Below, one piece after another: positions 3,962 to 64,000 of a stretch of 64,000 bases of DNA. Source of the stretch: an uncultured virus (IMG/VR IMGVR_UViG_3300020050_008348) (Duplodnaviria; Heunggongvirae; Uroviricota; Caudoviricetes); the IMG/VR virus record IMGVR_UViG_3300020050_008348; one strand, written 5' to 3'. Position 1 is the stretch's first letter. Each line of letters opens with the position of its first letter. Below the pieces are notes generated by a model, which saw nothing but the letters and a program-made list of their open reading frames with translations, did not search any database and was not told where the DNA came from. The position numbers and the translations under genes are program-made.

Positions 3962-6900
3962 TACTTAAACCGACAGAAGATGGTGTATCATTAGCTGATA
4001 AAGTGAAATCATACAGAGGTGTCATTACAGAAGAACAAGTAGTTGAACAATTAAAGAATGATGGTTATTGGAATGCTATTAGTGAAAAACTAAATGATGA
4101 AATATTATTATTAGTAGTAGCTAAGAAAGATTCGTGGACTAAAAGTGGTATCGCTGAAAAAGGTATAGATGCTGGTTACAAACATCGTTTCAGAGAAGGT
4201 GATACTATTGACTTAATCGCAAGAGATTTTGTAATTGGTAACATAGTAGCTAACGCTAATCACTTTATGATGTTTATTGGTGACCCTGCTCAATACTATA
4301 AGAAAGGTGATACATTTGAACAAATTAGTGAAAAAACATTTACTAATATAGGTAAACGTTTAGCTAATCAGATAGCCCCGGGAATTGATATACCTAATAA
4401 ATATAACAATCAATACAGTCATATATTTTTAGCTGACCCTCGTAGTTACGCAGAGAATCTTAGCTATTTAACAAAGGTGCTTGATGGTAAAGTATTTGAT
4501 AAGGTTGCTTTCTCTAAATTTAGTGGGAAACAATTGAACGAGTGGATTAATGAAGAATATCCAAATACAGCACCATATTTCAATATAGATAGTGCTGATG
4601 CACAAGAGTTTGTTACATGGAAAGAACACATGTATTTAGTACGTCAATTAGGTAAAGTACCAGATTCAGATTGGGATTTCAAGGAAGATGAACTGAACGA
4701 ACTTGATAAATTAATAGAATCTAATATAGCATTTGAAGATTTTAATGCTAAACAAAAAGAACTATTAGGTAAAGTAATGCAACCTATGAAACCTGTATAT
4801 ACTAATATGTATAAACATGGTGACGTAATGCGTGTACAGTATATCAAAAGTTCAGCAGTACCACTTATTCCACAATTTACTAACGGTTTAGAGATAGACA
4901 AATTACGTGAATTTATGGAAAAAGTAGAGAAGAAAGGTAAACGTACAGTACGTGCATCTTATTCAACTGCTAATAAAGTAGGTGATGTAGTTGCTCCATT
5001 AGATATATGGAATAAAGATGAAGCTGGTTACTCACTTGGTACAATCAGAGACGATTTGAATGATTCTGATATTGAACAGATGTTCAACAGTCAAATACTT
5101 ACACTTAGTCGTAAAGGATTCAGAATACAACAAGCTATACCATTTAAGACAGGTAAAAAAAGTAAAGACCAAATCAGTATGGGTACACAAGCAACTAAAA
5201 CATTGTTTGCAGATATTCGTGGTATTGGTGGATTTACATTAAATGGTTCAGAACCTATGACTGGTTTTGAATTAGAACAAGTGTATAATGATACTTACAA
5301 GCAGTTATATAAAGAACTTCGTAGTAACTTCTTGAATGAGATTGGTGTAGATGGTGATATGGTAATACGTGATAAAGCTAAATTCTTTGAAGCATTACAA
5401 GAAGTATTACGTGATGAAGCATTAGCACGTAATTATGGATTAGCTGATATAGAAGCGTTAGATTTAATCAAAGATGCTAATGGTAAAGCTACTGGATTTA
5501 AAGTACCACTATGGTTATCTAACAGTTCAGAAAGATATGAAAATCTTATTAATGCTATTATTAATAGTCGTATCGTTAAAGTTAAATTCTCTGGATATAG
5601 TTATGTTGTAGCATCAGAAGAAGGTGTAAAAATACAGTATATTAATGATATGCCAGCATCTAATAAAGTTATATGGACGTCTAAATGGACTGGTAATCTT
5701 AAAGCTAATCAAATACTTGTACCATCTAAATTCAGAGATAATAGAGGTAATATAGTTGACTTATTTGAAGGGTTTAATGAATCTACTAAAGAAGGTAAAT
5801 ATGTAACACATGATGATATGGGTTATCATTTGAAAGAAGATATGTTTGACGAGAAATTGTTAAAGATGTTTACTTTCCGTATTCCTACATCTGGTAAAAT
5901 GTCTATGTCAAGTGTTGAAATAGCAGGATTCATACCGTATGAAATGGGTGATGTTATGTATGGTTCTAAGAACTTGACTAAACAAAAAGGTCTTGACTAT
6001 GACGTAGATAAAGAAAATGGTTATTCGTATGGACATAAAATGTCAAATGGTAAATTTGTACTTGATAATTCAGATAAGATTAAAGCACTAAAGAATACTA
6101 TTATTGACATACATCATGCTGTATTAGCTAATCAACAAGTAGCTAAAAGTAACTTTCAACCATTAGGATTTGAAGTTGCTGCTGAATCTGCATCGTTTAT
6201 TGAGAAGAATAGAGTTAAAACTAATCGTACATTTATACCATTAAGCGACCAATATCAAAAAGAAAAGTTAATTAGTGGTTCTGCTGGTAAAATGCAAACA
6301 GGTATTTCATCATTAGCTGTTACATTTCACGCACAAGTACAAAGATTAAAACATGTAAAATATACAGACACTAAAGGTGTAGAACGTACAAGTGAAATTA
6401 AACCATATTACATTGTAGTTGATGAAAATGGTTTACCTAATTATGTACCAGCTACTATTACATTTGGTAATACAAGTAGTAACTTACAATTAGGTAATGA
6501 TAAAACTATTGACGGTCGTAGAACAATCAGTGAAGTATTATCTGAATGGCAAAACTTTTCAGTAGATAATGAGAAAGAACAGATACTTGCTAAAATTAAT
6601 CTTAATGAAGTAACAAGTAGTGCTTATTCAGCTTTACTGTTGTTTGGTTATGACCTACAAGAATCTAAAAAATACTTTGATGGTATAGTTAGTAATCCAA
6701 ATAATTTACCAACTACTACACAACAAGGTAAACCTAAATTATTATCTATACCAAATACATTTTTATCTCAACCTGTACTTGTAGAATATGTTAAAGCTAT
6801 TAGAGATAAAGATTCTATTATTGCTACATATGTTAAAGATAAAGAACTTCAATCAGCACATGAAGCTCTACAAACTGTATTAGGTGATAAATATACTAAA

Positions 6901-9900
6901 GAAGTAGCAGATTATCTCAATAAGCATTGGGGTACAGACCATATTGTACCAGCTTTTGATGCAGCTATGACAGTAGATAACATGATGTCTTTAATTGATG
7001 GTACTTATTTACTTGATGATATATCTATACCAACTGTATATGCACTATTGACATTCCAACGTTTATCTAAAATAGGTCAATCATTTCAGAATATACAATC
7101 ACTCATTAATACAGATAGTAAAGGTATTAAAGGTACACTTGTAGAATCTGAAACTAAAATGGCTAAGATTAACGAGTTATTAGATAAGAATAACTATGTA
7201 TTTGGAAACTTAGTATTAACTAATGCTTCTAAATTATTAGTAGATTCATCTATTGGTCATGCTACCACATACGGTTTATATACAACATCATTATTTACAC
7301 AATCTTCTCAATTGTTTCCTATTGGTCAATTAGAAGGATTGTTTAGTGAAGTAGGTTCATTAATACAAAAACCTAATGAACGTACTGAAAAGATAGTGGA
7401 AAACAATAAGTTAATAACTAAAGAGTTCCGTAAGTTTATTAACAGTCAAATACTATATAAAATATTTGGTGCTAATAAAGATTCAGTATATCCAGATATT
7501 GCTACACTACGTCACGAGTTGTTTACAACAATTAAAGATAGTAAAGGTGTAATACTTAAAGATTCATTAGCAAGTTATTTACAAAGAATAGTTAAGAATG
7601 GTTATAGTAATAGTCTATTAAACTCTCTATCAACTGATTTAACTAATCCAGATTACTCTTTAATCAAATATAATAATACAGGTGATGCTAATAATGATGA
7701 AGTACGTTTATATAATGCACTAAATCAAATGATTATTGACAAAACACCATTAGAAGATTTTAATGGTACATCATTTACAAGTAAAGACCTTGCAGAAGCG
7801 TTAATACAGTATTCATTCTTGAATGGTAACGTACAAGAAGCTATTGAATTTACTAAGTTTATTCCTATTAGTTACTTAGAAGCAATTGGTGTTAATCAAG
7901 CATTACGTGATTTAGATATTCGTGAAGTATTCACACCAAGAGAATTTATGGTAAGTGAATTTACTACACAATTTGTACAACATCATCCAGAATTAGTAAA
8001 AGATAGATTAAGTAGTAAAGAGTTATTAGCTAAAGGAACAGATAAATTCTTTCAAGATAATGGTGTATTTAAAGGTGTAAATGTCAATACATTAGAATCA
8101 TTTAGATTACCAATTATAGATGATGCACCAATCAGACACTTTATAGTTACTAAGTCTGCTGGTAGTAAACGTCAATGGAACATCTTTAAATTAGATGTGG
8201 CTACTGGTACATATAATCGTATTAGTAATTTAGGTGTATTTGGTATGACCGAATATCAAGCTGATGTAGCTAATGCTCAATCTGTAATACCTTCATTTAA
8301 CAATTTTAAAACAACACAAGTACAAGAAGTACAGGCTGATATAGTATCTGCCAAAACTAAAGAAGAATATAGTACAATTGATAAAGCGTTAAATAAGATT
8401 ATAGCTGATGATTCCCCACTATCAACAATAGCAGCAGAACTCATTGGTAAATCACAATTCTCTATACAATTCGTATCTGATGAAATTGCTAATAAAGGTG
8501 GTTACAATGGTATATCTGATTGGAATACTAAGACTATCTATGTACGTGAATCATTAACAGATTCTCCTAAATTACCATCAATATTAATAGAAGAAATTAT
8601 ACATTCTATTAGCCAATATGCTATTGCTCAAACATTCAATCCTACTACTGCTGAACAACGTGCTGTATTAACACCTATTCAAGCACAAGTAAAAGGTTTA
8701 TACAAACGTACAATAGAGGAATTGGAGAAAATATACGGTATTGGTAAAGTAAATGAGTTCAGACAGTTGTTTGCTAAATTAGGTGCATTACCACAACCAC
8801 AACAATTATGGGGTGAGAATACTGAATTTACACAAGATGATGTTACTGTATTATATAGCTTACACGATGTTAATGAATTTGTAGGTAGAACATTAAGTCA
8901 TATACCTACTATGAAAAAATTAGCTACTATTAAGTTTACAAGAAATCAAACATTACTTGAAAGACTTGCTGATATAGTAGTTAACGCACTTAAAGCATTA
9001 GGTATAGTTACTAAAGATTCATTACTTGAAGAAGTAATGCGTACTAACTTAGCTTATCTACGTGAGATTACAGGTGAAACTAACTATACACCATTACCGT
9101 TTAATTTCAATAATGCAGCATCTATTGATGAAATAGTATCTGGTCAAAAGACATCTACTACACGTAAAGTTAATGAAACAGGATTACAAGTAGGTGAATC
9201 AGCTATTCAAACAATTGGTACAGAACAAGTACGTGTAATTTATCACGGTGAGTTAACTGCTGATGAAGCTGGTAAGGTATTGGGTAAATCATTAAGTGCG
9301 GAACGTAATCAAGTTATTAAATCAGATATGCAAGATTATCTAAATGGTGTAGGTACACGTCATGTATTTGGATTACAGTTGATTAATCCTGTAAGTTTGG
9401 TGAATAGTTTTAAGCGTGATATAGTACAGATTGATAATGAAGTAGAACTATTATCTAAACTGAGTGTAACTAATGATATGCCAAAAGGATATGCTTTTGT
9501 ACATGATGGTGATTTAGATAAAACAATGAGTAAATTATTAAATTTTAAAGAAGAACGAAAAAGTAATCGTTATTATTTAGAAGCCGTCAATCGTTTAATA
9601 GATGTTACTGAACGATTAATTAAATTACGAAATACACCAAGCTCCACATTTACTTCTAATAGTGGGAAACCACCTATGTTCAACAATCATCCAGTAGTAT
9701 TTGTTGATGATTTAACAAATGACCAACAAGTATCAGTAGTATTAAAGAATGGTACACTAAGTATTAATGAAGGTATATTACGTAAGAACTTCCGTGAACA
9801 ATCATATGCTCAACCAAAAGAGTATGTAAGTAAGACAGGTGTACGTTCAGTATCAAATGCTTTAGATATTAATGATATACAAAGTGTAGATGAATACTTT

Positions 9901-10167
9901 GTGTTTATTGCAAATATGTTAACAAGTGGATTAACACAAACAGCTAATGAAACAAGAGGTGAGTTTGAGAATAGAAGTAATCAATATGCACTTGAACAGT
10001 TAGTAGGTTGGAGAAATGGGTTAAGTAATGTAAAAGTAGAATCTTTCCAACCTGTATCAGTTGACTTGTCCACAGATATTCGTACCTTTCGGAATAATTT
10101 AAATGAACAAGATAAACAATTATTTCTAACTCTCCAAAAGGAGAATTTAATTTCAGTCAAATGTTAA
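3958..10167 (+). CDS. Virion-packaged RNA polymerase (crAss-like), 5'-truncated at the junction; C-terminal zincin-like and ASCH-like regions
   Basis: 'FRIPT' and catalytic 'GLDYDVDK' (5995-6009), 'DAQEF' and 'QPMKPVY' motifs; >2000 aa. The ORF-track start at 3916 lies in the foreign segment. Confidence 0.88.
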   Translation, partial: PILKPTEDGVSLADKVKSYRGVITEEQVVEQLKNDGYWNAISEKLNDEILLLVVAKKDSWTKSGIAEKGIDAGYKHRFREGDTIDLIARDFVIGNIVANANHFMMFIGDPAQYYKKGDTFEQISEKTFTNIGKRLANQIAPGIDIPNKYNNQYSHIFLADPRSYAENLSYLTKVLDGKVFDKVAFSKFSGKQLNEWINEEYPNTAPYFNIDSADAQEFVTWKEHMYLVRQLGKVPDSDWDFKEDELNELDKLIESNIAFEDFNAKQKELLGKVMQPMKPVYTNMYKHGDVMRVQYIKSSAVPLIPQFTNGLEIDKLREFMEKVEKKGKRTVRASYSTANKVGDVVAPLDIWNKDEAGYSLGTIRDDLNDSDIEQMFNSQILTLSRKGFRIQQAIPFKTGKKSKDQISMGTQATKTLFADIRGIGGFTLNGSEPMTGFELEQVYNDTYKQLYKELRSNFLNEIGVDGDMVIRDKAKFFEALQEVLRDEALARNYGLADIEALDLIKDANGKATGFKVPLWLSNSSERYENLINAIINSRIVKVKFSGYSYVVASEEGVKIQYINDMPASNKVIWTSKWTGNLKANQILVPSKFRDNRGNIVDLFEGFNESTKEGKYVTHDDMGYHLKEDMFDEKLLKMFTFRIPTSGKMSMSSVEIAGFIPYEMGDVMYGSKNLTKQKGLDYDVDKENGYSYGHKMSNGKFVLDNSDKIKALKNTIIDIHHAVLANQQVAKSNFQPLGFEVAAESASFIEKNRVKTNRTFIPLSDQYQKEKLISGSAGKMQTGISSLAVTFHAQVQRLKHVKYTDTKGVERTSEIKPYYIVVDENGLPNYVPATITFGNTSSNLQLGNDKTIDGRRTISEVLSEWQNFSVDNEKEQILAKINLNEVTSSAYSALLLFGYDLQESKKYFDGIVSNPNNLPTTTQQGKPKLLSIPNTFLSQPVLVEYVKAIRDKDSIIATYVKDKELQSAHEALQTVLGDKYTKEVADYLNKHWGTDHIVPAFDAAMTVDNMMSLIDGTYLLDDISIPTVYALLTFQRLSKIGQSFQNIQSLINTDSKGIKGTLVESETKMAKINELLDKNNYVFGNLVLTNASKLLVDSSIGHATTYGLYTTSLFTQSSQLFPIGQLEGLFSEVGSLIQKPNERTEKIVENNKLITKEFRKFINSQILYKIFGANKDSVYPDIATLRHELFTTIKDSKGVILKDSLASYLQRIVKNGYSNSLLNSLSTDLTNPDYSLIKYNNTGDANNDEVRLYNALNQMIIDKTPLEDFNGTSFTSKDLAEALIQYSFLNGNVQEAIEFTKFIPISYLEAIGVNQALRDLDIREVFTPREFMVSEFTTQFVQHHPELVKDRLSSKELLAKGTDKFFQDNGVFKGVNVNTLESFRLPIIDDAPIRHFIVTKSAGSKRQWNIFKLDVATGTYNRISNLGVFGMTEYQADVANAQSVIPSFNNFKTTQVQEVQADIVSAKTKEEYSTIDKALNKIIADDSPLSTIAAELIGKSQFSIQFVSDEIANKGGYNGISDWNTKTIYVRESLTDSPKLPSILIEEIIHSISQYAIAQTFNPTTAEQRAVLTPIQAQVKGLYKRTIEELEKIYGIGKVNEFRQLFAKLGALPQPQQLWGENTEFTQDDVTVLYSLHDVNEFVGRTLSHIPTMKKLATIKFTRNQTLLERLADIVVNALKALGIVTKDSLLEEVMRTNLAYLREITGETNYTPLPFNFNNAASIDEIVSGQKTSTTRKVNETGLQVGESAIQTIGTEQVRVIYHGELTADEAGKVLGKSLSAERNQVIKSDMQDYLNGVGTRHVFGLQLINPVSLVNSFKRDIVQIDNEVELLSKLSVTNDMPKGYAFVHDGDLDKTMSKLLNFKEERKSNRYYLEAVNRLIDVTERLIKLRNTPSSTFTSNSGKPPMFNNHPVVFVDDLTNDQQVSVVLKNGTLSINEGILRKNFREQSYAQPKEYVSKTGVRSVSNALDINDIQSVDEYFVFIANMLTSGLTQTANETRGEFENRSNQYALEQLVGWRNGLSNVKVESFQPVSVDLSTDIRTFRNNLNEQDKQLFLTLQKENLISVKC

Positions 10168-10757
10168 AAACAGTAATTACATTAGCAGCAGGAGGTCTAA
10201 TTGTATTTTTAGTAGCTTATGGTCTTGGTTGCCATAGAGGTAAAACTGTTATACAGAAAGAGTATATTACTCAAATTACTCACGATACAATTCGTGATAC
10301 TGTAAATGTTACTCGTGTAGTTCCCCACTATATTGATAGACTACCGACAAACATCAAACAAGTAGTTACTAAAGATACTGTAATCAAGTATCAGTACAAA
10401 GACAGAATCCAGTATGTAGATAGAGACATCTATCAAACTAAATTTGATACTGTAACTATTAGTAAAGATACACCTATATTGGTATATCAAGATTCAGTAG
10501 TAAAACCTAATTATACAATGGTATATAATATTCGTACTATTGGATTATTAGATGCGTTTAATTATACAGTTACTACTAAGAACCCGCCTGTAAAGCAAGA
10601 TACTAAGAAATTTTTTAGTAATTTGTTTTTAGGTTATCGTTTTGATAATGATGTACAAGTAGGTGGTCAAATTGGTTATAATAAAATTAGTGTAAACTAT
10701 TTATACGGTGCAAATAGTAAAACACACAATGTATTTATTGGTTATAAACTATTTTAA
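10161..10757 (+). CDS. Membrane-anchored protein (possible spanin-like)
   Basis: N-terminal TM helix, repeated DT(I/V) segments, beta-rich C-terminus ending GYKLF. Confidence 0.5.
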   Translation: MLKTVITLAAGGLIVFLVAYGLGCHRGKTVIQKEYITQITHDTIRDTVNVTRVVPHYIDRLPTNIKQVVTKDTVIKYQYKDRIQYVDRDIYQTKFDTVTISKDTPILVYQDSVVKPNYTMVYNIRTIGLLDAFNYTVTTKNPPVKQDTKKFFSNLFLGYRFDNDVQVGGQIGYNKISVNYLYGANSKTHNVFIGYKLF

Positions 10758-15212: not shown

Positions 15213-15343
15213 CTTTGTTTCATAATTATATTAAAAAGGTAGGAGATTTTAGTATAATGTAAAAAATATTGATAATAGCCATGTATAGTATATACAACTC
15301 CTACTTGTACATATTACTACGTGGCTTTATTATTTTATATAAC

Positions 15344-16066: not shown

Positions 16067-16106
16067 GTTTCCCACTATTAATAATAAGAGTAAAGCTGTA
16101 TTACTC

Positions 16107-17709: not shown

Positions 17710-17720
17710 ATTAAATTTTA

Positions 17721-52633: not shown

Positions 52634-52637
52634 CAGT

Positions 52638-53748: not shown

Positions 53749-56436
53749 ATGGTACTCCCCCTACTCATAACTATATTAATAATACTACTTATTATATTAA
53801 CAGTTGTACTATGGTTAGGTACATATATAGTAGTACAAAGCAATACTAATATTGAATTAACTATTGCTCAAAAAGAGTATGATAAACTTGTTGAATTGAT
53901 TATAGTAACAGGTAGCACTATTAGACAGTATGAGTATAGTAATCCACATAAAGATTATACAGAGATAGTTGAGTTTTATGAACGTAAAAGTATTGATTTG
54001 AAGTACTTTTTATTGTGTAATAAACAACCGATTAATAAACATTTTAATTTTGAAGAATTTAATAAAACAGTATTCAAATGAGACTACAAGATATAGTAGA
54101 AGAATTAAGACAAATAGAATCTCATGTACAATCTCCATATAGCTTAGTAGAAGTAATAGATAAATTAAACTATTACATTGATACTACTGATAAAAGAATA
54201 TATGAAGATATTACTAAGAATATGTTGAAAGGTATGATACGACCATATCGTAGATGTGGTAATACTACAAGATTAGTTGATTATTATATACAGAAATTCT
54301 TTGAAGAAGGTATAATATTAGTAGATGATGTCCAGTCAAATTCACAAATATTTACATCAAATTCAGAAAGACAAAGGTTGTTTGGAACAATTCAACAAAG
54401 ATTATACCATGAACATAGAAATGTTGTAGATAATGTTGAATTTAATAGTAATTGTTATATAATTAGATTTAAAGAGATTGTAAATGGAATACCTTGTACA
54501 GACCCAAGACTAAAAGGTTACACAATGTTTAATCCAAATGGTAAATCAAGAATTGAAGAACAGTTTGATTTTAAAGATGAAGATATTACAAGTATAAAAG
54601 ATTCAACATTAAATGATGCTATGGTTAAATATTTAAAAGAAAGACCTGTTGCAACAGGTGTACCAATAGAACATGAATTACCGTTAGCTAATAAATCAAA
54701 AATTAAATATGGATAAGACAATAATAGGAAATGGTGGTAAACTACCAGATACACATATAGCTGATTTAGATTTTGGTATTGATAAAGAATCTTTATTAAA
54801 GATGTGGGAAATGATACAACCAAAGTTTAATGAAGAACTTAGTAAACGATTTGGCAAATGTGTTATATATGGTACAAGTCCAGAAGAAGAATCAAATAGT
54901 GAATGGTTTAAAGATTTATTTATGAATCCAGAAGCATTTAATACAGTACCAATTGAAGATGTTTGGAATGATGAAACAATAAGAACAGAATATACAGTTA
55001 CAAATAGTGGTACAACTTCTAAAATATATTTTAAACCAGTAAATAATAAAGAACAATGAATATAGGTGAAAAACTTTTTGATATGTGGATGGATAAACAT
55101 TATCCATATTTTTATATTACAACAGGTATTATAACTTTAATTAGTTATATGTTGATAGCAGCATCAATTATATCTGTCTTTTGGGTAGGTGATTGGTGGA
55201 AGTATTTGTTAATATCTTTACTAATTACTGTTACTATAAAGTTTGTAGTACATATAGCTTTAAAAAGTTATTTTATTCCACAATGGTTAAATAATAAGTA
55301 GTATGAATAAAGCAATTCAAAGTAGTGTATTAAACGTTGAAATTATAAATACTACCCCTATTGGTGGTAAATTAAATTGGTTTGAAAAACTAATAGCTAA
55401 AGTATTTAAAACTAAAGTAGTATATACTAATCATTATAAATGTAAATTTACAATTAGTTTACCTAACTATTATAAATCAAATGATATAATTGTAAGTAAT
55501 AGTAATTGTATTGGTTGGCAGATATTAGAAGTTAATACTGATAGTATAATAGTTGTTACGTTAAAACCAGTAGAAGTGTCAATACCTATAACCACTATTT
55601 CTAAAATCATGTTAATATCAAGTACTTACAATGAAGGAAGGTAATATAAAAACATTTAACGTAAATGGCGTGACTATATCACAAGTATTTAATCCAATGC
55701 TTGATATAGTATCAGATAATATTATTGGTTTTACAGAATATTCACTTACAATGTTTACAGGAAATGATGGTTATGTACCAGTAGATAGTGATAAACAATT
55801 AATAGTTCATCCATTTACTAATAATAAATATAGTATTGGGTGTGTTCCAATTACAGGTAATCGTTCAGCTATTGTATTTAAAAGAGGTCGTGCTACATGG
55901 TTTGGATTACTTAGTTATTTCAATAATATCATATGGTAGGAAGATGATGATAATACTATTGGTAAATTAATTAGAGAATCTGATAGTATTATTACAACTG
56001 AATATTTAACTAAAGAACAAATAAAAGAAAGATATGGAAAATAAAGAATTAAGTTGGTTAGAACAAGCAGAAATAAAATGTTTAAAACAATTGGAAACTG
56101 ATTTACAACAGTTTTTATCTGATATATTTGATGTTAAACGATTTCAAAATGAAGATAAGAACTTAGTAGCATGGACAGAAAGCGAAGAATTAGTAGATGA
56201 TTTTCATAAAGCAATAAAATTAGAGTTACAAGATGGAAAAGAATCCTTATGATATGCACATTACTAAATCAATAGGTATTAATATATCTAATTGGACAGT
56301 AGAAGAACAATCTGAATTGTTCGATAAGTTGAAAGAAGCTAATATTGGTTTCACCATAAATAATGATAATGACATACCAACAACAACTACACACTCCACA
56401 ATGGACAGCAAAGAGATTACAGATATTCAAACGTGA
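53749..56436 (+). other. Hypothetical ORFs (53749-54081, 54078-54716, 55056-55301, 55303-55644, 55631-55939, 56034-56252, 56233-56436)
   Basis: Tightly coupled, co-oriented ORFs. Confidence 0.6.
54709..55059 (+). CDS. Small protein homologous to an internal segment of TerL
   Basis: GKCVIYGT...FKDLFMNPEAFN..IEDVWND aligns with TerL GQLLVFGT...FSEMFYSPEQFN..FENIWDE. Confidence 0.6.
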   Translation: MDKTIIGNGGKLPDTHIADLDFGIDKESLLKMWEMIQPKFNEELSKRFGKCVIYGTSPEEESNSEWFKDLFMNPEAFNTVPIEDVWNDETIRTEYTVTNSGTTSKIYFKPVNNKEQ

Positions 56437-56644
56437 TAAGTTTTCATGTAGGGTTTGTCAATCTAAGATTAGTATTCAAGTACACCATATAATATACGTG
56501 GATGGAAAGATGTGCTGGCAATATCCTAATAGTTTGTTGATTACTTTGTGTAGTGCTTGTCACAAGAAGCAACACACTAACTTCCCAACTATTATTGTTA
56601 GTGGGAAATCATTAAGTTTTAAAATAAATAAAAAAGAGAAATAA
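56363..56644 (+). CDS. HNH endonuclease
   Basis: RD.F.CRVC...VHH..Y...WQYP...LITLCSACH. Confidence 0.85.
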   Translation: MIMTYQQQLHTPQWTAKRLQIFKRDKFSCRVCQSKISIQVHHIIYVDGKMCWQYPNSLLITLCSACHKKQHTNFPTIIVSGKSLSFKINKKEK

Positions 56645-56824
56645 AATGGCAATACATATTATACCAGTTAATGACTTAAAAGAACATGAAGAAAATTCTA
56701 CGTGTGAGTGTCAACCTACATTAATTATGGAGAATGGAGAAATGATATTTGTTCATAATTCTTATGATGGTAGAGAACTCTATGAAGAAATAGAAGAAAT
56801 TAATAACAACTTAAATTAATAATA

Positions 56825-57899
56825 ATGGCAACAATATTTCGTAAGTATTTTAGAACAAGAGATTATGAAGATATAGCACATATAGAAGTAGCTACAAATC
56901 ATAGAATTATTAACTGTAAATTAGATTTTGATGAACTTGGTGATGGTTCTACAATTAGTATTATTTTATCAGCTTGGTTTTTTATTTACATAGGGTTTAA
57001 TGTTAAAGCTAAATGGTTTTGGAATTTACTAAGAAAAATAAATAAACCAAACACAGGTAACTCTAAATATGTTGAAAGAAGTATGGGTTTTAGCTTTTCA
57101 GATTGGACTTTGCGTATATCTATATGGGAAGATGAAACAGGTTGGTCAAGAAGTAATCCTAAATGGTGGGCTTTTTATATAGATTTTAAGAAACTACTAT
57201 TAGGTAAAGAGACTTACAGCAAGAAGTACATACAAGAAAAGATGTTTGATATACCATTAAGAGAAGGTGTGTACTCATGTTTAATTCAAGAGTTTGAATC
57301 ATATTGGAAGTATAAACGATTTGGATGTTTTGCTAATAAAAAGATTACAAGATATGATTGTTTGTTTGGTAGAGAAGTGAATAAAGATAATAAGTTCGAT
57401 AAGTGGAGATATTCTAATAAATTTGAATGGTCATATGAAGATGTACCCGATGATGGTAGAAATATAACTTATTGGATTGATGAATATGTACCAGCAACAT
57501 CTAAACCTAAATGGAACGATGATTCAACAGGTAGTGTTTGTGGTTTTGCAAAAGCTAAATCTATAAATGAAGCAGCTTCGATGTTACTACAAGATTTATT
57601 TCACTCACGATTACAATACTTTGGTGATAAATATGAACCAACAACTAAAACTGTACAACAGTAAACAGTTTAATGCACAGGCTTTACAGTTACTCGACTG
57701 TAAGGCTTGTTTAGTTTTAATGAGAAATATAAATCTTCAATACTTTCTGAATAGTATTCATATTGGAGATACTATATTCTACTTAGATAATGACTTATTC
57801 ACATCATTTTGTATAACAGAACAAGTCTTAAAGGATAGACATATAAGGTTAACAAAAGGTAGATTTATAATAATTGATGATTGGTATGTATTACTGTAA
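56825..57899 (+). other. Hypothetical ORFs (56825-57664, Trp-rich; 57633-57899)
   Basis: Open ORFs on the coding strand. Confidence 0.6.
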
Positions 57900-57978
57900 A
57901 AATATTCAGTAAAATATGTACAGTATTCAAGATTAAATGTATCTTTGTCTTAAAGTTCAACAAGTAACTATGTAAATA

Positions 57979-58332
57979 ATGATAACAAGTACAAGTAAAA
58001 CGTTGAAACTCAATAGATTAGACTACTATATTACACATTTGAAGATTATAAACAGTATAGTGTCTTTTGAGTTGACGGATAAAGAAATAAATGTATTGGC
58101 ACACTTTCTATCAATGGAAGGTGATATACGTAAAGATTTGTTTGGTTCAACAAGTCGTAAATTAGTACGTGAGCAATGTAATATTACATTATCTGGACTA
58201 ACTAATTACTTGAATAGTTTACAAGTAAAGAGATGTGTAATTAGAGATGAACTTGGTAATTTAAGATTACACGCACTAATTGATATTAATAGTACAACAC
58301 ATACATATAATTTAACATTAACTATGAAATGA
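57979..58332 (+). CDS. Winged-HTH DNA-binding protein
   Basis: 'LTDKEINVLA...RKLVREQCNIT..GLTNYLNSL..K'; preceded by TATCTTTG at 57940. Confidence 0.55.
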   Translation: MITSTSKTLKLNRLDYYITHLKIINSIVSFELTDKEINVLAHFLSMEGDIRKDLFGSTSRKLVREQCNITLSGLTNYLNSLQVKRCVIRDELGNLRLHALIDINSTTHTYNLTLTMK

Positions 58333-58333
58333 T

Positions 58334-58741
58334 ATGAGTTTAATAACATGGCAATCATTAATTCCTGTTGTTGAAGGACATACTAAAGAAGAATGTACAG
58401 CAACAGTTGAAGAACATTTTTATCATCGTAGAGTGTTACTTGAAGATGGTTATGATACTGATTTTAAGATTCATCGAAAGCATCTATTTACTATTACATT
58501 AAAAGGTGCGTATAGTGCAGTTCAATGGTTTAATGCTAAAGGATTAAATCTTGACACAATACCAAGTGAGTTTGGTAAGACTAAGTATAGATTATTTACT
58601 AAGTTTGTAGAACGTAAACGAGCTATTAGAGCTTCTGATAAAATTGATAGAGGTGCTAAAATAAAAGATATAGGAGATGGTACAGTTAAAACATATCGTA
58701 AAACTCTTCCGAAAACTAAATCGAGTAAGCCAAATATTTGA
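58334..58741 (+). CDS. Basic hypothetical protein (possibly divergent HU/IHF-like)
   Basis: Basic composition and position upstream of the packaging genes; motif match is weak. Confidence 0.35.
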   Translation: MSLITWQSLIPVVEGHTKEECTATVEEHFYHRRVLLEDGYDTDFKIHRKHLFTITLKGAYSAVQWFNAKGLNLDTIPSEFGKTKYRLFTKFVERKRAIRASDKIDRGAKIKDIGDGTVKTYRKTLPKTKSSKPNI

Positions 58742-59027
58742 TTATATACAAGGTACATCATTACAATGGTTACATGATAATCATAGAAGATTAATACCTA
58801 CGTATATATTAGAACAGTATTACTATCGGTTGAATATAATGGATAGAGAATGTTTGTTCAATGGACAATGTAAGTTGTGTGGTTGTAATACACCAGCATT
58901 ACAGTTTGCATTTAAAGCATGTGATGGTAAATGTTATCTACGATTGATGAATCCTTTTAAGTGGAAAAGATTCAAAAGAGAGCACCCTTATGTATTAATG
59001 TTAATAAACAAATTTAATAATGAGTAA
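58677..59027 (+). CDS. Cys-rich zinc-binding protein
   Basis: C...G.C..CGC........C...CY. Confidence 0.65.
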   Translation: MVQLKHIVKLFRKLNRVSQIFDYIQGTSLQWLHDNHRRLIPTYILEQYYYRLNIMDRECLFNGQCKLCGCNTPALQFAFKACDGKCYLRLMNPFKWKRFKREHPYVLMLINKFNNE

Positions 59028-59352
59028 TCCAGTTTATTCTACATTTGATTTTTATGAAGCAGATTTAGGTATTGTAGCTGAAAGGTCTGTTGTAAGTGGT
59101 ATATTTAAGTTTCAACCAATAGCAGAGAATAATCCAAAGTATCTATTTAATATACCTTCATGTGGTTGTTTAAGTGGTGATTGGAAAGATAATGTATTAA
59201 CCATTAAATATGCTGTTGGTGCTATTGGTGCATTTCATAAAGATTTAGGTATTACAGAATTACCACAAGCTAAATCAGTAAGTGTATTTATTGAAGAACA
59301 TGGTATTCAGAAAGAACATGTATTAACACTTAAAGCTAAAATAGTCCTATGA
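59020..59352 (+). CDS. DUF1573-like Ig-fold protein
   Basis: 'PSCGC' motif in a beta-rich ~110-aa protein. Confidence 0.55.
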   Translation: MSNPVYSTFDFYEADLGIVAERSVVSGIFKFQPIAENNPKYLFNIPSCGCLSGDWKDNVLTIKYAVGAIGAFHKDLGITELPQAKSVSVFIEEHGIQKEHVLTLKAKIVL

Positions 59353-60014
59353 TAAAAGCATTTATAAAGAGCAATCAGTACGTAGGTAAGCGTAATTGGT
59401 TGTTTCCCACTAATAATATTAGACAGATTGTACTCCACCACACACAGGGAAGTACAGCAGATGGAGCTATTGAGTGGTGGGGATTAACACCAGATAAAGT
59501 AGGTACTAACTTTATTATAGATAAAGATGGTACTGTTATCAATACTATTCCTGTTGAGTGTTGGGCTTATACATTAGGTATGTCAAGTGCATCTAATAAT
59601 ATACCAAGTGTTTATAAGACTACTAAGTACGCACGTAATATAGAACAGATGGGAATATCTATTGAAATGGTGTGTGAAGGAGAGTTGGTAAATATGGGTT
59701 CTGATAAATACTTGTTTGAAGATGGTGGTAGATTTATTGATAAAAGTAAGGTTACTATATTAGATAAACCACATAGAGCATATACATGTTATGCTTCTTA
59801 TACTATTGAACAGATTAAGTCTTTAGAGGTATTATTGAAGCAACTATCAAGCGACCACTCTATTCCTATTAGTGGGGAACATAAGATATTCGACATTAAT
59901 TATAAAGCTCTACAAGGAGAAAAAGGTATTTATTCTCATGTATGCTATCGTAGTAAGGATAAGACAGATGTATTCCCACAACCAGAATTAATAACTATGC
60001 TAAATAACTTGTAA
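59349..60014 (+). CDS. N-acetylmuramoyl-L-alanine amidase (endolysin)
   Basis: IVLHHT, 'F.IDKDG', 'SIEM', 'YT.EQ..SL', 'SH...K.D..P'. Confidence 0.88.
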   Translation: MIKAFIKSNQYVGKRNWLFPTNNIRQIVLHHTQGSTADGAIEWWGLTPDKVGTNFIIDKDGTVINTIPVECWAYTLGMSSASNNIPSVYKTTKYARNIEQMGISIEMVCEGELVNMGSDKYLFEDGGRFIDKSKVTILDKPHRAYTCYASYTIEQIKSLEVLLKQLSSDHSIPISGEHKIFDINYKALQGEKGIYSHVCYRSKDKTDVFPQPELITMLNNL

Positions 60015-60548
60015 ATGAAATGGGTTTATGTAGATAATTATATTGTAAGACCAACACTTGATGCTCTTACAATAAAAGAAATAGCTAAGTGGTTTCAAGA
60101 TAATCCAGATATAGGTATTACTAAGTTGACTTATATATATCATATGTGTGATTTTAACTCACAATATGAAGGATATAGTGATGATATTAAGCATGATAAG
60201 ATATGTGAGTTTATTATCAGAGATAAGAACTTTCAAGTAGATGATGAAATCAAGTGGTTAATTACTAAGTATAGAGAAACACAAGAAGAAGAATCACCTA
60301 CATTATCATTATATCAAAACGCTAAAGATGTATTATACAAGTTTGCTGAATACTACAAAGGTATAGATTTTGATGAAAGAGATTTGAAAGGTCAACCTGT
60401 ATATAAAGCATCAGAAGTAGCTATGTCATTAGGTAAAGTTGGAGCTATGATGAAAGCATATGATGATATGAAAGAACGTGTTAAGAAAGAAATCTTTAGT
60501 ACTAACAAAACAAAAGGTGATAGAGCTATAAACAAATTTGAAAGATGA
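60015..60548 (+). CDS. Helical protein upstream of TerL (possible small terminase subunit)
   Basis: Position and helical character; assignment is from context only. Confidence 0.45.
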   Translation: MKWVYVDNYIVRPTLDALTIKEIAKWFQDNPDIGITKLTYIYHMCDFNSQYEGYSDDIKHDKICEFIIRDKNFQVDDEIKWLITKYRETQEEESPTLSLYQNAKDVLYKFAEYYKGIDFDERDLKGQPVYKASEVAMSLGKVGAMMKAYDDMKERVKKEIFSTNKTKGDRAINKFER

Positions 60549-60865
60549 TAATACCAGATATAATTAATAGTAATACTATTGATAGTAGACCAACAATAGC
60601 TGATACTTTTGATAATGAAAGTAGTCAAAAAGCATATTATCGTATCGGTATGGGAGATTTGCTTGATATGCAAAAAGCAAAAGACAACACTATTGTGAAT
60701 AATAGTAATGTTAAAGTACATTCAAGTTCTTTATTCAGTAAAGATAATTTTATAGGATTGTTTGATTGGTTAGAATCAGTAGATGATGGATTTCAATGGT
60801 TGGATAATTTATTAACAGGTAAATTATTTGTACCTTCTAAAATAGTATATAACGAGTATATTTAA
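60545..60865 (+). CDS. Hypothetical protein
   Basis: Coupled ORF before TerL. Confidence 0.55.
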   Translation: MIIPDIINSNTIDSRPTIADTFDNESSQKAYYRIGMGDLLDMQKAKDNTIVNNSNVKVHSSSLFSKDNFIGLFDWLESVDDGFQWLDNLLTGKLFVPSKIVYNEYI

Positions 60866-60868
60866 ACT

Positions 60869-62914
60869 ATGGGAGTAACTAATAGTATTCGTAATAAAGA
60901 TGGATATTGGATTAATTCTGCAATATTTACAGAAGAAGCTGCTCATTTTCAGAAGTATGGATATTATTGTGCTGCACCAGAAGATAGTATTGAATATGAG
61001 CAGTATTGGGAAGAACAACTTAGAAGATGTATAGAAGGTTATTCATCTGGTGGTGGATTTATTACAGGACATCATTACAACTATTTGAATTTTAGTAGAA
61101 TTAAGAAATCTACTGGTAGTGGTAAAAAAAGTAGAAGTAAAGAAGCAGAATTTCCAAGTTTTTATGATGGTGATTACGATTACTACCATATAATAGATAT
61201 AGCAAGATATGGTTGTACAGAAGAACATCTGAAAGGATTACAGTTAGAAAACAATCCATTACAGATAGATGGTGGACATCATTTAATAGTAGGTAAAGCG
61301 AGACGTAAAGGTTATTCGTATAAAAATGCAGCTATTGTATCAAATGTATATAATACCGATAGAGATAGTATATCACTATTAGGTGCTTATGAAAGTAAGT
61401 ATTTATATCCAGAAGGTACTATGGCTATGGTTATGAGTAATCTTAACTTTATTAATCAACATACAGCTTGGGGTAAAAAGAGAGATTTTGTTAATCAGAT
61501 AGCTCATATTAAAGCGTCTTTTAAGGAAGAAGAAAGAGGTGTACCCGTTGAAAAAGGTTATAAGTCACAAGTAATATGTGCAACATTTAATGCTAATTCA
61601 GAAGCAGCTAAAGGTAAAGATGCTACATTAGTATTATTTGAAGAAGCTGGTGTATTTGATAATCTTAAAGCATCTTACTTAGCAACTAAGTCAACAGTAG
61701 AAGATGGTATTTATACTACGGGACAATTACTGGTATTTGGTACAGGCGGTAATATGGATTCTGGTAGTAAGGATTTTTCAGAAATGTTTTACTCACCAGA
61801 ACAGTTTAATGCACTATCATTTGAGAATATATGGGATGAAGATTCAAGTGGTACATTTTGTAGTTTCTTTGTACCACAATGGAAAAATAAAACAGGATTA
61901 ATAGATGAACAAGGTAATTCTTTAAAGACAGAAGCATTAGAATATGATAATAATATACGTATAGGTATCAGTAAATCTGCTAATAGTAGTGGTACATTAG
62001 TATCACACGCACAAGAGAATCCTAACAGCCCAGCAGAAGCATTTGTTATCAAAAGTTTTAATGATTTCCCTATTCAAGAATTAAATGCACGATTATCACA
62101 ATTAAAACGTGATAACAAATACATTATTTATGGACAACCTGTATATTTGCAGAAAGTTGAAGGGAAAGCGAGTATTAGACCAGATTTAAAGAATGAGTTA
62201 AAACCACTTTGGTTTAAAAATGATAGAGGTGAAGGTTGTGTAGTAATATATGAAGCACCTATTACAGCACCACCAAGAAATATGTATTGTATTGGTTATG
62301 ACCCATATAGACAAGATATAGGTACATCAAATGCTGGTGTATATGTTTATAAGAAAGCTAATGGATTATCTCAATCACAAAACAAGATAGTTGCATCATT
62401 TATAGGTCGTCCTAAGACATTTGATACGTGTAATTATATAGTAGAGTTATTATCAGAACTGTATAATTGTGATATAATGTATGAGAATGAAGTACCAGAT
62501 GTAGTAACTTATTTTCGTAATAGAAACAAATTACATTATCTCGCACTACAACCAGATTCGGTAATTTCAGCAGTAGTAGCTAATAGTAAAGTCAAGCGTA
62601 TTTATGGTATGCACATGACTGATAAAATTAAAGATGCTGGTGAAAAGTATGTTAAAAAATGGTTATTGACAGTTATTGATTACGATGAATATGGAAATGA
62701 AATTACTAATTTAGACCGATTAGAAGATGTTGGTCTAATTGAAGAATTAATAAAATACAGTCGTAAAGGCAATTTTGACCGCGTCATGTCCTTTTTTCAA
62801 ATTATGTTTCAATTAGAATCTGATACAAATGATGATAACTATGCTAACCGAGAAGATACAGAAGAAAGTATTTTTGATAGATTAATAAACTTAACATTTA
62901 ATAATGCAAATTAA
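60869..62914 (+). CDS. terL: Terminase large subunit
   Basis: Walker A KARRKGYS, Walker B LFEEAG, 'FGTGG', nuclease GYDPY and NFDRV. Confidence 0.92.
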   Translation: MGVTNSIRNKDGYWINSAIFTEEAAHFQKYGYYCAAPEDSIEYEQYWEEQLRRCIEGYSSGGGFITGHHYNYLNFSRIKKSTGSGKKSRSKEAEFPSFYDGDYDYYHIIDIARYGCTEEHLKGLQLENNPLQIDGGHHLIVGKARRKGYSYKNAAIVSNVYNTDRDSISLLGAYESKYLYPEGTMAMVMSNLNFINQHTAWGKKRDFVNQIAHIKASFKEEERGVPVEKGYKSQVICATFNANSEAAKGKDATLVLFEEAGVFDNLKASYLATKSTVEDGIYTTGQLLVFGTGGNMDSGSKDFSEMFYSPEQFNALSFENIWDEDSSGTFCSFFVPQWKNKTGLIDEQGNSLKTEALEYDNNIRIGISKSANSSGTLVSHAQENPNSPAEAFVIKSFNDFPIQELNARLSQLKRDNKYIIYGQPVYLQKVEGKASIRPDLKNELKPLWFKNDRGEGCVVIYEAPITAPPRNMYCIGYDPYRQDIGTSNAGVYVYKKANGLSQSQNKIVASFIGRPKTFDTCNYIVELLSELYNCDIMYENEVPDVVTYFRNRNKLHYLALQPDSVISAVVANSKVKRIYGMHMTDKIKDAGEKYVKKWLLTVIDYDEYGNEITNLDRLEDVGLIEELIKYSRKGNFDRVMSFFQIMFQLESDTNDDNYANREDTEESIFDRLINLTFNNAN

Positions 62915-64000
62915 TCATAGAATAACACAAAGAGAGAAAGATAAAAATGATAAGCAATACTATAAAGATTGTATAAATGATATTATTGCTGTATCAAATG
63001 GTACTTCTTTCACACAAGATACTAATACATTAGGTGTATCTCGTAGATTAAAACTACAAGGTAACTATGATTTATTAAATGGTATTGTTAATCATGCTGA
63101 TTTTACACACGTATTTAATACGTATGGTGTTAATGTAGGAGCTATGCCTGTTAACTTTAGTCACAAAGATATTGTTTCCCCACTATTTAAGTTACTGTTT
63201 GGTATGGAAATGTCCAGACCATTTGAGTGGTCTGTTGTTGCTACTGATGAAGAAGCTACTACACGTTTTGAAAGAGAGTATTATGATAAATTATCTCAAT
63301 CAGTAACAGGTATGCTTATTCAAGAAATACGTACTAAGTTAGAAGCTGAGAATCCTTCTGAAAATATGACACCAGAAGAACGTGATAAGATTAAGCAGAA
63401 AATAGAACAAGAAGTACAAGCACAAACACCAGAACAAGTACAAGCATACATGCAACGCAATTATCAAGATGTTGCAGAGACTATGTGTGAGCAGTTGTTA
63501 AAGTATATCATTAAGGAAGATGATATTGAAGCTAAGTTTTTAAAGAATTGGAAACACGTAATTATTGCAGGATTTGAAATATATTGGACAGGTATCATTA
63601 ATGGTAAACCAACAGTAAAAGTTATTAATCCAATTCATGCGAGTGTAATTGGTAGTAATGATTCACAATATATAGAAGATGCTGATGCAGTATTAGTAGA
63701 ATATTATTTAACTCCTTCACAAATTGTAGAAATATTTGGTACAGAACTTACCAATGACGAAATTGCTCGTTTGTATGATAGCCATTATACTTCATCTGCT
63801 ATATTTGATTGGGAGTATTCATATAGCACTCAGAGGATAGGTACTATACGTGTAATACACGGAGAATGGCAATCATTAAGAAAAATAGGATTTGTTACAC
63901 AAGAAGATGGTAATAAGATAGTTGTATCAGAAGATTACAAACTTAACAAAGAGTTTGGTGATGTTTCTATATCATGGTCTTGGATTCCAGAGACTCACGA
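62904..64000 (+). CDS. Portal protein (runs off the window end)
   Basis: Open frame MQINHRITQ... with 'NYDLLNG' and 'P..F.H.DIVSP..KLL.G.E..RPF'; directly after TerL. Confidence 0.8.
   Translation, partial: MQINHRITQREKDKNDKQYYKDCINDIIAVSNGTSFTQDTNTLGVSRRLKLQGNYDLLNGIVNHADFTHVFNTYGVNVGAMPVNFSHKDIVSPLFKLLFGMEMSRPFEWSVVATDEEATTRFEREYYDKLSQSVTGMLIQEIRTKLEAENPSENMTPEERDKIKQKIEQEVQAQTPEQVQAYMQRNYQDVAETMCEQLLKYIIKEDDIEAKFLKNWKHVIIAGFEIYWTGIINGKPTVKVINPIHASVIGSNDSQYIEDADAVLVEYYLTPSQIVEIFGTELTNDEIARLYDSHYTSSAIFDWEYSYSTQRIGTIRVIHGEWQSLRKIGFVTQEDGNKIVVSEDYKLNKEFGDVSISWSWIPETH

Follow-up and report, generated by a model that had tools for sequence, protein, structure and literature searches.

A dispersed DNA element with an invariant core in an uncultured crAss-like phage

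Introduction

The uptake sequences of Haemophilus (USS) and Neisseria (DUS) have a core that is short, exact and flanked by AT-rich DNA, occur in both orientations and are fairly evenly spaced; their in-gene copies arise via base substitution, and inverted pairs of them are found after genes. REPs are extragenic, each of their units is palindromic, and they are moved by a RAYT transposase. The promoters of phage N4 are hairpins of 5–7 bp with 3-nt loops.

Cluster A mycobacteriophages such as L5 and TipsytheTRex carry stoperators, asymmetric 13-mers present more than 20 times per genome which follow the direction of transcription and which, in the passages dealing with them, are described as being read by a single protein, whose two domains contact the same DNA face (PMC9283540). 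The PeSLs of T4-type phages are described in the corresponding parts of PMC4122927 as composite terminator/promoter repeats mediating gene swaps. In crAss-like phages transcription of the early and replication genes is the task of a virion RNA polymerase, for which the sections of two reports that treat this enzyme give no promoter motif (bioRxiv 10.1101/2020.03.07.982082; PMC10136315).

Here we describe a dispersed element of an uncultured crAss-like phage. The window is a stretch of 64,000 nucleotides (IMG/VR record IMGVR_UViG_3300020050_008348); the interpretation given in an earlier note on it is partly supported by our analysis. The element and the stoperators, as far as the latter are described in PMC9283540, are alike in being highly conserved asymmetric sites, more than 20 in number, which are spread genome-wide over promoter regions and short intergenic spaces, and their numbers are similar (26 stoperators, ~38 element copies). 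They differ in that stoperators have 13 bp, follow direction, belong to temperate phages and have a known repressor, whereas the element has ~35 bp, is of mixed orientation, has many copies within genes and belongs to a phage that looks virulent.

Occurrence and Architecture of the Element

The dispersed repeat is genuine. The window contains 31 exact cores, 25 of them TAGTGGGAA and 6 TAGTGGGGAA, versus 0.26 and 0.05 expected, and at most 2 copies of TAGTGGGAA were found in 100 dinucleotide shuffles. With an order-3 Markov background 0.50 copies of TAGTGGGAA are expected, the excess being 50-fold. When synonymous codons were shuffled in 80 ORFs, with the protein and the per-gene codon usage held constant, 0.69 ± 0.76 in-gene copies were expected (maximum 4 in 500), versus 15 seen. 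All 31 sites that the earlier note had listed were found again, only its complement-strand coordinates being off by one; its rough estimate had been less than one chance copy per 60 kb, and the over-representation persists under both the Markov and the codon-aware background. The GC-rich first 3.96 kb of the window, reported to be free of the element, indeed contain no core. With seven copies from an IMG/VR contig of the same phage (G004; eight copies, seven of them new), the whole set amounts to 38 copies over ~79.5 kb. Apart from the element, no motif of the phage is strongly repeated.

The consensus, tgTTTCCCACTAAnAwtAATArnnGTGGAGCTTagt, is asymmetric and ~35 bp long; its 12-bp core (tgTTTCCCACTA) is followed by an AATA patch and then by a patch centred on AGCT. 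The sequence xATA is found at +5 to +8 in 20 of the 31 window copies and AGCT at +16/+17 in 12 of them (9 of the 15 intergenic ones), versus ~0.8 expected. A second box at near-fixed distance, as claimed before, is thus present, but the bipartite form holds for only about two-thirds of the copies. The core is all-or-none: allowing one mismatch in TTTCCCACTAA adds two real core variants (at 16832 and 30385), with 1.6 expected by chance, and a weight-matrix scan revealed no additional degenerate copies. A core this invariant is more usual for a site recognised by an enzyme or a polymerase than for most sites of regulators. The patches are centred near −5.5, +6.5 and +15.5 to +17.5, at fixed distances and about one helical turn apart, which is the geometry expected for contacts on one DNA face. 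Sub-families of copies have sequence in common beyond the consensus; for example, the copies at 18494 and 18786 share an identical cassette of 47 nt.

The AT-rich 13 bp of the element are flanked by CCAC and GTGG. The boxes of Bacteroidetes primary sigma factors (TTG, 17–21 nt, TAnnTTTG), which the middle promoters of phi14:2 do carry, are absent from the element. Only one of the 10 host-type TTG..TAnnTTTG sites in the window, few of which are in the early block, lies near an element, and a host sigma promoter was therefore rejected.

Placement of the Copies

Window copies are balanced between the strands (15 on the plus, 16 on the minus strand). Relative to the genes, the 38 copies are oriented sense in 15, antisense in 21 and ambiguously in 2 cases. 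Fifteen of the 31 window copies lie outside any ORF of at least 50 codons, and two more (16069, 18451) only within short doubtful ORFs; as intergenic DNA makes up ~13.5% of the phage part, copies are enriched there. About half are within genes, and most are at or near gene boundaries. Since orientation is independent of the genes and half of the copies are in genes, a simple promoter is argued against, and the earlier statement that such a promoter does not suffice holds good. Spacing is more even than random (mean gap 2.7 kb, CV 0.69, P = 0.02). Well-formed copies tend to be antisense (12/21 vs 4/15); the trend is non-significant (P ~0.1) and hints at a directional function.

Several copies lie in the ORF of the giant virion RNA polymerase protein, of which the C-terminal 2,065 residues are encoded at 3970–10167 (plus strand). 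This crAss-type polymerase matches phi14:2 gp66 with E = 2e-25, DYDVD being aligned to DFDID. The copies within it are a minus-strand one at 4495–4532 (core 4521–4529; antisense), in which the second box is absent, a plus-strand CCCC variant at 8409–8447 (core 8412–8421; sense) with the AATA patch only, and a full minus-strand element at 9634–9671 (core 9660–9668; antisense), which has GTGGAGCTT and is located ~500 nt before the end of the ORF. A core-only CCCC variant follows on the plus strand at 10318–10356 (core 10321–10330) in ORF 10161–10757. Further in-gene copies are a core-only one at 21497–21534 (minus; sense in ORF 20947–21582), full elements at 24876–24913 (minus; sense in ORF 24450–25631, using a rare CCC codon) and 26819–26856 (plus; antisense in ORF 26607–27515), a copy with patches one base off at 39451–39488 (minus; sense in the DNA polymerase gene 37912–39765) and one at 48713–48750 (plus; antisense in ORF 48288–48857).

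The remaining in-gene copies can be compared with a relative of 72–88% identity (G001). The full element at 56573–56610 (minus), antisense in the 3′ end of the small HNH ORF 56363–56644, is conserved there. In the endolysin gene (59349–60014), the copy at 59401–59438 (plus; sense) differs by one core base and the CCCC variant at 59844–59882 (minus; antisense) is conserved as CCC, whereas the core-only CCCC variant at 63173–63211 (plus) in the portal gene is absent from the relative. The 279-aa protein encoded at 56825–57664 is likewise conserved. According to this comparison the in-gene copies come from point substitution and not from insertion, and a MITE-like insertion was rejected on these grounds. 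Of the 20 GGG and 14 CCC codons that the phage has, these copies account for four each. In-gene copies are maintained through synonymous codon choice and hence by selection at the DNA level.

Such upkeep, together with the exact all-or-none core, the equal use of both strands and the spacing, which is more even than random, is what a recognition site of a phage DNA enzyme might show, whether the site served a nickase, signalled two-strand priming or replication initiation, or acted as a recombination hotspot. Consensus nick sites are known from the genomes of the phiKMV group, phage tf and T5, and our phage has four HNH genes (15269–15853, 17148–17657, 32210–33037 and 56363–56644) and a Toprim primase gene (28935–29906). 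We consider this explanation distinctly improbable: no enzyme is linked to the element, nick or priming sites would not be expected to prefer intergenic DNA or to form inverted pairs, and known primases recognise only 3–5 bases.

Among the other single copies, the full plus-strand element at 16066–16103 (core 16069–16077) lies at the far end of the early block, where it adjoins a canonical bidirectional hairpin. Those at 18783–18820 (plus; antisense) and 42188–42225 (plus; antisense) are also full; the core of the former is 48 nt upstream of the ATG at 18737 on the sense strand and the latter is between the genes 42248–42499 and 41945–42136. The divergent control region 52070–52637 contains three copies, namely a full plus-strand element at 52155–52192, in which the second box is tandemly duplicated (10 bp), and two that point at the early block, a minus-strand CCCC variant at 52344–52382 and a full minus-strand element at 52401–52438. 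Adjoining this triple cluster is a winged-helix gene (RepL/BlaI-like; 52638–53060, plus), the first of the rightward block, whose product is by inference a candidate binder of the element. A second winged-helix gene (45812–46153) is a candidate by position or family.

A phage-specific promoter, used by the virion RNA polymerase or by the host polymerase with a phage factor, would fit the copies that head the early block or lie 25–135 nt ahead of many start codons. In such a promoter the polymerase would bind at the core, melt the AT-rich 13 bp and start in the second box, possibly in either direction, since CCAC and GTGG clamp the AT stretch on its two sides. The strict core resembles the conservation of T7-type promoters, the element is the sole strongly repeated motif, the early block is poor in host-type promoters, and a crAss-type virion polymerase, the candidate reader if the element is a promoter, is present in the carrier. 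For the polymerase that transcribes the early and replication genes of crAss-like phages, the reports cited above give, in the parts concerned, no motif. It should be noted, however, that orientation is not tied to the genes (15 sense, 21 antisense), that 15 copies are within ORFs, and that the late block is equally populated, face-to-face pairs included. On the minus strand of the early block the element follows only one of five well-formed terminator-like sites (at least 11 stem pairs), and phage Fpv20, with a homologous polymerase of 35% identity, has neither a copy in its 89,937 bp nor an analogous repeat, no 8-mer being repeated in its 23 early intergenic regions. Moreover, the mapped early 5′ ends of phi14:2 have no common motif in the part of the report that describes them (bioRxiv 10.1101/2020.03.07.982082). 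The phage RNA-polymerase promoters of the T7 group, of N4 (hairpins) and of phiKZ (early) share with the element a conserved phage-specific motif beside an AT-rich stretch and a phage-borne polymerase, but are gene-directed and intergenic, whereas the element is of mixed orientation and single copies do not fold. The suggestion of a virion-RNAP promoter is weakened by the gene-independent orientation, the copies in the late block and the result for Fpv20, and we regard a promoter as doubtful, if still a serious contender.

Inverted Pairs and Hairpins

The divergent pair 17744/17777 consists of a full element at 17718–17755 (minus; sense), upstream of the HNH gene 17148–17657, and an element at 17774–17811 (plus; antisense). 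Two full elements form the divergent pair 18451/18494, at 18425–18462 (minus; sense) and 18491–18528 (plus; antisense), the second being the one with the 47-nt cassette in common with copy 18786. At 35816/35858 an element at 35790–35827 (minus; sense) faces away from a full one at 35855–35892 (plus; antisense). The divergent pair 42564/42603, at 42538–42575 (minus; sense) and 42600–42637 (plus; antisense), has its first copy downstream of a canonical terminator (42724–42695), and the likewise divergent pair 48221/48248 is made up of a full element at 48195–48232 (minus; sense) and a CCCC variant at 48245–48283 (plus; antisense). Convergent is the pair 28879/28936, with a full element at 28876–28913 (plus; antisense) and an element at 28910–28947 (minus; sense) that spans the stop codon of the primase gene.

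Seven inverted pairs at gene boundaries fold at −19 to −36 kcal/mol (z = −5.7 to −9.8). By contrast, the single copies, 24 of the 38, are no more structured than shuffled sequence (mean z = −0.16, and −1.04 for the other strand), and a hairpin within each element was accordingly rejected; with single elements being unstructured, the copies are not hairpin promoters of the N4 type. G001 retains, with another inner stem, the pair after a 480-aa gene that lies downstream of the portal gene: both sides have changed in 5 of 32 pairs, and 88.9% of the cells are paired versus 43–51% in slid controls, in a comparison of two sequences with the structure derived from one of them. These compensatory changes suggest that the pair acts as RNA or as a cruciform. 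The hairpin of the late block at 6565–6625 of the extension is followed by a T-run, TTTTTTCTTTT, as in an intrinsic terminator; the 480-aa gene pair resembles one weakly. In the five divergent pairs neither strand has a T-run behind the stem, and the single copies do not look like terminators either.

The folding of the pairs would fit palindrome-forming intercistronic cassettes of the PeSL or REP/BIME kind, with the paired hairpin acting as terminator, processing site or mRNA stabiliser. Such cassettes would spread and persist by duplication and recombination, for which the sub-families and the 47-nt cassette at 18494/18786 speak, and would serve as exchange points for gene shuffling. The compensated hairpin after the 480-aa gene and the T-run in the late block are in favour as well, the former with the reservation that the covariation comes from two sequences and the structure from one. 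PeSLs provide, in the parts of PMC4122927 concerned, a precedent for terminator/promoter repeats mediating such swaps, and are like the element in that they are composite signals repeated between genes, with a stem-loop, where variable genes begin or end; they coincide with gene-replacement points between close relatives, as two of the element clusters may do among the matches listed. PeSLs have, however, a host sigma-70 early promoter and are gene-directed, whereas the element is without a host-type promoter, has both orientations and also occurs in genes. REP/BIME and REPIN sequences are likewise short repeats that are found singly or as inverted hairpin-forming doublets between genes, but 15 of our copies are in ORFs, single units are non-palindromic and unstructured, and a Y1 transposase is absent from the 89 proteins scanned with Pfam. 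That most copies are single and unstructured, that the divergent pairs have no T-run and that ordinary terminators unrelated to the element are also used by the phage count against a cassette, and copies which come from point substitution and are held by codon choice are not explained by one. We therefore consider it unlikely.

Restriction to One Phage Lineage

The relative G001 has the same core in 7 copies (control 0). No RNA run is among the public runs listed for the phage; in a wastewater DNA run 45% of the sampled phage words were present, and the contigs give a mosaic picture. A wastewater relative (run X1) has, among the matches listed, 48172–48299 and 52084–52472 as conserved islands amid replaced DNA, and three other element clusters within colinear stretches. 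The first island contains the pair 48221/48248. Two element clusters being such islands is a further point for a cassette and gives soft support to the proposed recombination site for gene shuffling.

In the other collections searched the element was not encountered as a repeat. A pattern scan of metagenomes gave at least 113 loci, none of those listed being homologous to the window; in IMG/VR the two-box form had 0 matches, divergent pairs 18 loci, all unrelated, and convergent pairs 102 loci, of which only those in G001 and G004 are related. A DNA polymerase search yielded only two distant contigs, both without the core, megablast of 7.9 kb against deposited phages yielded no match, and INPHARED contained chance matches only. 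The element was not recognised in the earlier note, and no description of it appeared in INPHARED, in Rfam (a tRNA match only) or in an exact-word literature search, where the matches listed were primers and the like. A literature search for a crAss early promoter found none.

A host-derived word, be it an uptake sequence, a Chi-like site or a host repeat, would have to be sought in bacteria. With USS and DUS the element shares the exact core with AT-rich tail, both orientations, in-gene copies by substitution, inverted pairs and even spacing, yet these are host-chromosomal and serve biased DNA uptake, whereas the element is phage-borne and no searched bacterial genome is enriched. The extended motif had 12 matches in 185,579 species genomes, all singletons; the 12-mer was present no more than 3 times in any of 401 Bacteroidia genomes, as was the reversed control; and the 10-mer was found 13, 10 and 3 times in three bacterial genomes versus 9, 12 and 5 times for the control. 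A host origin, named earlier as the finding that would speak against the element, did not materialise; it is largely refuted for the genomes sampled, outside of which the host possibly lies, and is very improbable indeed. The element is restricted to this phage lineage, which is as well established as the copies, their invariance, their placement and the selection at the DNA level.

A Possible Reader of the Element

Our tentative preference, held with less than even confidence, is that the copies are sites, dispersed over the genome, at which a sequence-specific factor encoded by the phage punctuates transcription units in a stoperator-like manner. One protein of the phage lineage would bind the ~38 operator- or stoperator-like sites on both strands and would mark, insulate or silence transcription units; two inverted copies would additionally yield a strong hairpin in the transcript. 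We infer binding at the copies and an effect on transcription from the patches at fixed distances, the invariant core, the gene-independent orientation and the intergenic enrichment, and likewise from the upkeep by codon choice, the even spacing, the lineage specificity, the cluster in the control region and a number and density like those of stoperators. As with stoperators, there are more than 20 dispersed conserved asymmetric sites (38 copies; 15–17 of 31 intergenic), but their orientation does not follow transcription (15 vs 21).

This does not mean that recognition by a factor is free of difficulties. The earlier idea of a binding site for a phage protein is now the top-ranked reading, but no protein is tied to the element: a cognate binder was not found, and the two winged-helix genes are candidates by position or family only. 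Stoperators track the direction of transcription, the copies do not. The phage looks virulent, and no integrase was found in the scanned ORFs (~10 kb of the genome and the 19.5-kb extension being outside the scan). The compensatory changes in the 480-aa gene hairpin suggest a role not required by a factor site, and the non-significant antisense trend is a hint of directional function.

Quite unlikely, in our view, is that the element is where the crAss-type virion RNA polymerase, an enzyme working on single-stranded DNA, enters: the 13-bp AT-rich stretch, clamped by CCAC/GTGG, would open as a bubble, and either strand could be entered. If true, this would account for the free orientation, the regular density on both strands and the upkeep within genes. 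The Pfam scan of the 89 proteins revealed neither a sigma factor nor a single-subunit polymerase.

Conclusions

It is unusual for the copies of a phage signal to be orientation-free and maintained by codon choice. Among the most abundant viruses known are the crAss-like phages, one lineage of which has, in the element, a DNA word that is sharply defined, open to testing and strongly selected at the DNA level. It is a marker for spotting this phage group in metagenomes and, whichever protein reads it, a handle for work on binding, transcription or the mapping of nicks.

Copy Number and Sequence of the Element

The dispersed element, an asymmetric bipartite repeat of ~35 bp with a core, an AATA patch and an AGCT-centred second box, is real. 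Every one of the 31 copies counted in the earlier note was found again, 25 of them as TAGTGGGAA (0.26 expected) and 6 as TAGTGGGGAA (0.05 expected), and an order-3 Markov background predicts 0.5 copies of the core. With 7 further copies in the extension provided by G004, an IMG/VR contig of the same phage, the total is 38 in ~79.5 kb. The enrichment also holds against a codon-aware background: when synonymous codons were shuffled inside each of 80 ORFs, with protein sequence and codon usage kept, 0.69 ± 0.76 in-gene copies were expected (maximum 4 in 500 trials) vs 15 observed. The in-gene copies contain 4 of the 20 GGG and 4 of the 14 CCC codons of the phage, GGG making up 2.5% of its Gly codons and CCC 3% of its Pro codons.

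Alignment of the copies yields the consensus tgTTTCCCACTAAnAwtAATArnnGTGGAGCTTagt. In the second box, AGCT is found at +16/+17 in 12 of the 31 copies (~0.8 expected). The core is all-or-none: one-mismatch variants occur at chance level (2 seen, 1.6 expected), and a weight-matrix scan added no degenerate copies. We regard the element as a DNA word whose exact sequence and number are both strongly selected for. An identical cassette of ~47 nt, in which the element is joined to the beginning of a GGACGT..ACGTCC hairpin, recurs at 18487–18533 and 18779–18825, 292 bp apart and on either side of a 69-aa gene.

The Carrier Phage

Two DNAs meet near base 3965 of the window. The first 3.96 kb (1–3965; 54% G+C) are from an unrelated phage and carry a lysis cassette (holin, endolysin, Rz-like spanin) and a tail-fibre gene; the remainder has 30% G+C. 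Since the join interrupts a crAss-like polymerase gene in mid-frame, the window is either two records or a chimeric assembly. Judged from its genes, the AT-rich part is a crAss-like phage. Gene order is as in Flavobacterium phage Fpv20, whose large terminase shares 46% identity with the one encoded here, and the C-terminal half of the giant virion protein (ORF 3970–10167, plus strand) aligns with gp66, the virion RNA polymerase of crAss-like phage phi14:2 (E = 2e-25). In this alignment the DYDVD at 5995–6009 (residue 676 of the ORF) falls on the catalytic DFDID of gp66; crAss-like phages are reported with DFD(I/V)D. The replication module (DNA polymerase, primase, helicases, Sak4, exonuclease, UDG) lies on the minus strand between 16 and 52 kb (early block), and small genes followed by those for endolysin, terminase and portal are found on the plus strand from 52.6 kb (late block).

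G004 is 99.987% identical to 56215–64000 and runs on for 19.46 kb into structural genes, and G001, a contig of a relative, is 72–88% identical to 56.5–64 kb and beyond. The ends of these independent contigs cluster at ~56215–56530 (G004 ends at 56215, G001 starts near 56529). By synteny, the first position of the linear Fpv20 record maps close by; the genome may physically end here, or the spot may be hypervariable. A 279-aa protein without an assigned fold (56825–57664, plus strand), which is absent from Fpv20, is 88% identical in G001 vs 86% for the terminase and thus the best conserved protein of the shared region. The early block also contains a tRNA-Glu (anticodon TTC; 44963–45034, minus strand), the sole Rfam or ARAGORN match in the window. 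A ThiF (E1-like) gene followed by one with a weak JAB-domain match (23773–25631, minus strand) recalls ubiquitin-like conjugation pairs and is found as a pair in Fpv20, too.

Placement and Orientation

The copies are on both strands and mostly at gene borders. Fifteen of the 31 window copies lie outside ORFs of at least 50 codons and 2 more solely in doubtful short ORFs, intergenic DNA being ~13.5% of the phage part. Among the 15 in-gene copies whose gene ends are known, 14 have a gene boundary no more than 300 nt away (random positions 66%; P = 0.017), a test that excludes 3 copies in the truncated polymerase ORF, the inclusion of which would give 14/18. The copies form 30 clusters, which are spaced more evenly than random (CV 0.69; P = 0.02) with a largest gap of 6.9 kb. 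Relative to the genes, 15 of the 38 copies are sense, 21 antisense and 2 in the divergent control region; well-formed copies show a non-significant lean to antisense (12/21 vs 4/15; P about 0.1).

The divergent region (568 bp; 52070–52637), which adjoins a winged-helix gene, holds 3 copies and a tandem 10-bp duplication in the second box (GGTGGAGCTT twice, 52170–52190); the duplicate is absent from a mosaic relative in a public wastewater DNA run (X1). Four HNH endonuclease genes are present (15269–15853, 17148–17657, 32210–33037 and 56363–56644), two of them from one small family. Three of the four are within ~220 bp of an element copy, no more than the density of the element predicts.

Inverted Pairs

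Fourteen copies make up seven inverted pairs. Five pairs are divergent and in the early block; of the two convergent ones, one is at the primase stop codon and the other 3' of a 480-aa gene, itself downstream of the portal gene and in the place of the Fpv20 capsid gene. Folding energies of the pairs range from −19 to −36 kcal/mol, with z between −5.7 and −9.8, as any inverted repeat would give; the stability of single elements does not exceed that of shuffled sequences (mean z = −0.16, other strand −1.04). The pair that follows the 480-aa gene recurs in G001, where its inner stem is different: 5 of 32 base pairs are altered on both sides, and 88.9% of the cells in the comparison are paired vs 43–51% with the partner slid, in a check of two sequences only with the structure derived from one of them. 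One late-block hairpin consists of a full copy and a decayed partner, followed by TTTTTTCTTTT; neither strand has a T-run at the divergent pairs. The phage has terminators of the ordinary kind as well, which bear no relation to the element. Five well-formed ones (at least 11 stem pairs) are on the minus strand in the early block, and only at one of these (42724–42695) does an element pair lie immediately downstream. That the element is a hairpin or shuffling cassette, a reading likened to the PeSLs as outlined in PMC4122927, would fit these pairs and not the single copies; it ranks third and appears rather improbable.

Occurrence in Other Genomes

In G001 there are 7 copies of the core (reversed control 0). 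The in-gene copies 56599 and 59870 occupy homologous positions in both phages, as does the pair that follows the 480-aa gene; other copies differ between the two phages by gain or loss via base substitution, not insertion. Among the matches listed for the X1 relative, the element clusters at 48172–48299 and 52084–52472 are aligned islands amid replaced DNA. Fpv20 (89,937 bp) lacks the element, and no 8-mer recurs across its early intergenic regions; a 9-mer survey of Fpv20 and one distant contig agrees with this absence. Deposited phages gave core matches at chance level only, and IMG/VR pattern scans found no carriers besides G001 and G004.

A host repeat as source is not supported by the bacterial genomes searched: 185,579 species genomes gave 12 matches, all singletons; 401 Bacteroidia genomes had at most 3 copies each, the same as the control; and three genomes counted singly were at control level. 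A host-derived word, ranked fifth, is considered very improbable.

Possible Functions

A search of literature and sequence libraries found no explanation of the element. The earlier note held that a simple promoter cannot account for all copies, and this is borne out: such a promoter is unlikely because orientation is free, half of the copies sit inside genes, face-to-face pairs occur, and relatives with the same polymerase have no counterpart. For phi14:2, the mapped early 5' ends are described as having no common motif and the middle promoters as host-type (bioRxiv 10.1101/2020.03.07.982082); the latter, four in number and extracted from the genome, are TTG..TAnnTTTG sites unlike the element. 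A phage-specific promoter, possibly bidirectional, is a candidate, which we rank second and consider doubtful. An enzyme target, e.g., a nick or priming site, would be a still less probable candidate and is ranked fourth.

Ranked first, if only tentatively, is that the phage encodes one sequence-specific factor which would recognise the copies as its sites and act on transcription units. Candidates for the protein that reads the copies are the winged-helix proteins 52638–53060 and 45812–46153, protein 57979–58332, the products of the four HNH genes and domains of the giant polymerase. The three conserved patches of the element are about one helical turn apart. The nearest known case are the stoperators, for which PMC9283540 describes asymmetric sites, over 20 to a genome, that are read by a single protein whose two domains lie on one face; as described there, stoperators follow transcription, unlike the element with its free orientation. 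The element belongs with the phage-specific dispersed signals, and what is unusual in it is that orientation is free, that the core is invariant and that in-gene copies are maintained by codon choice.
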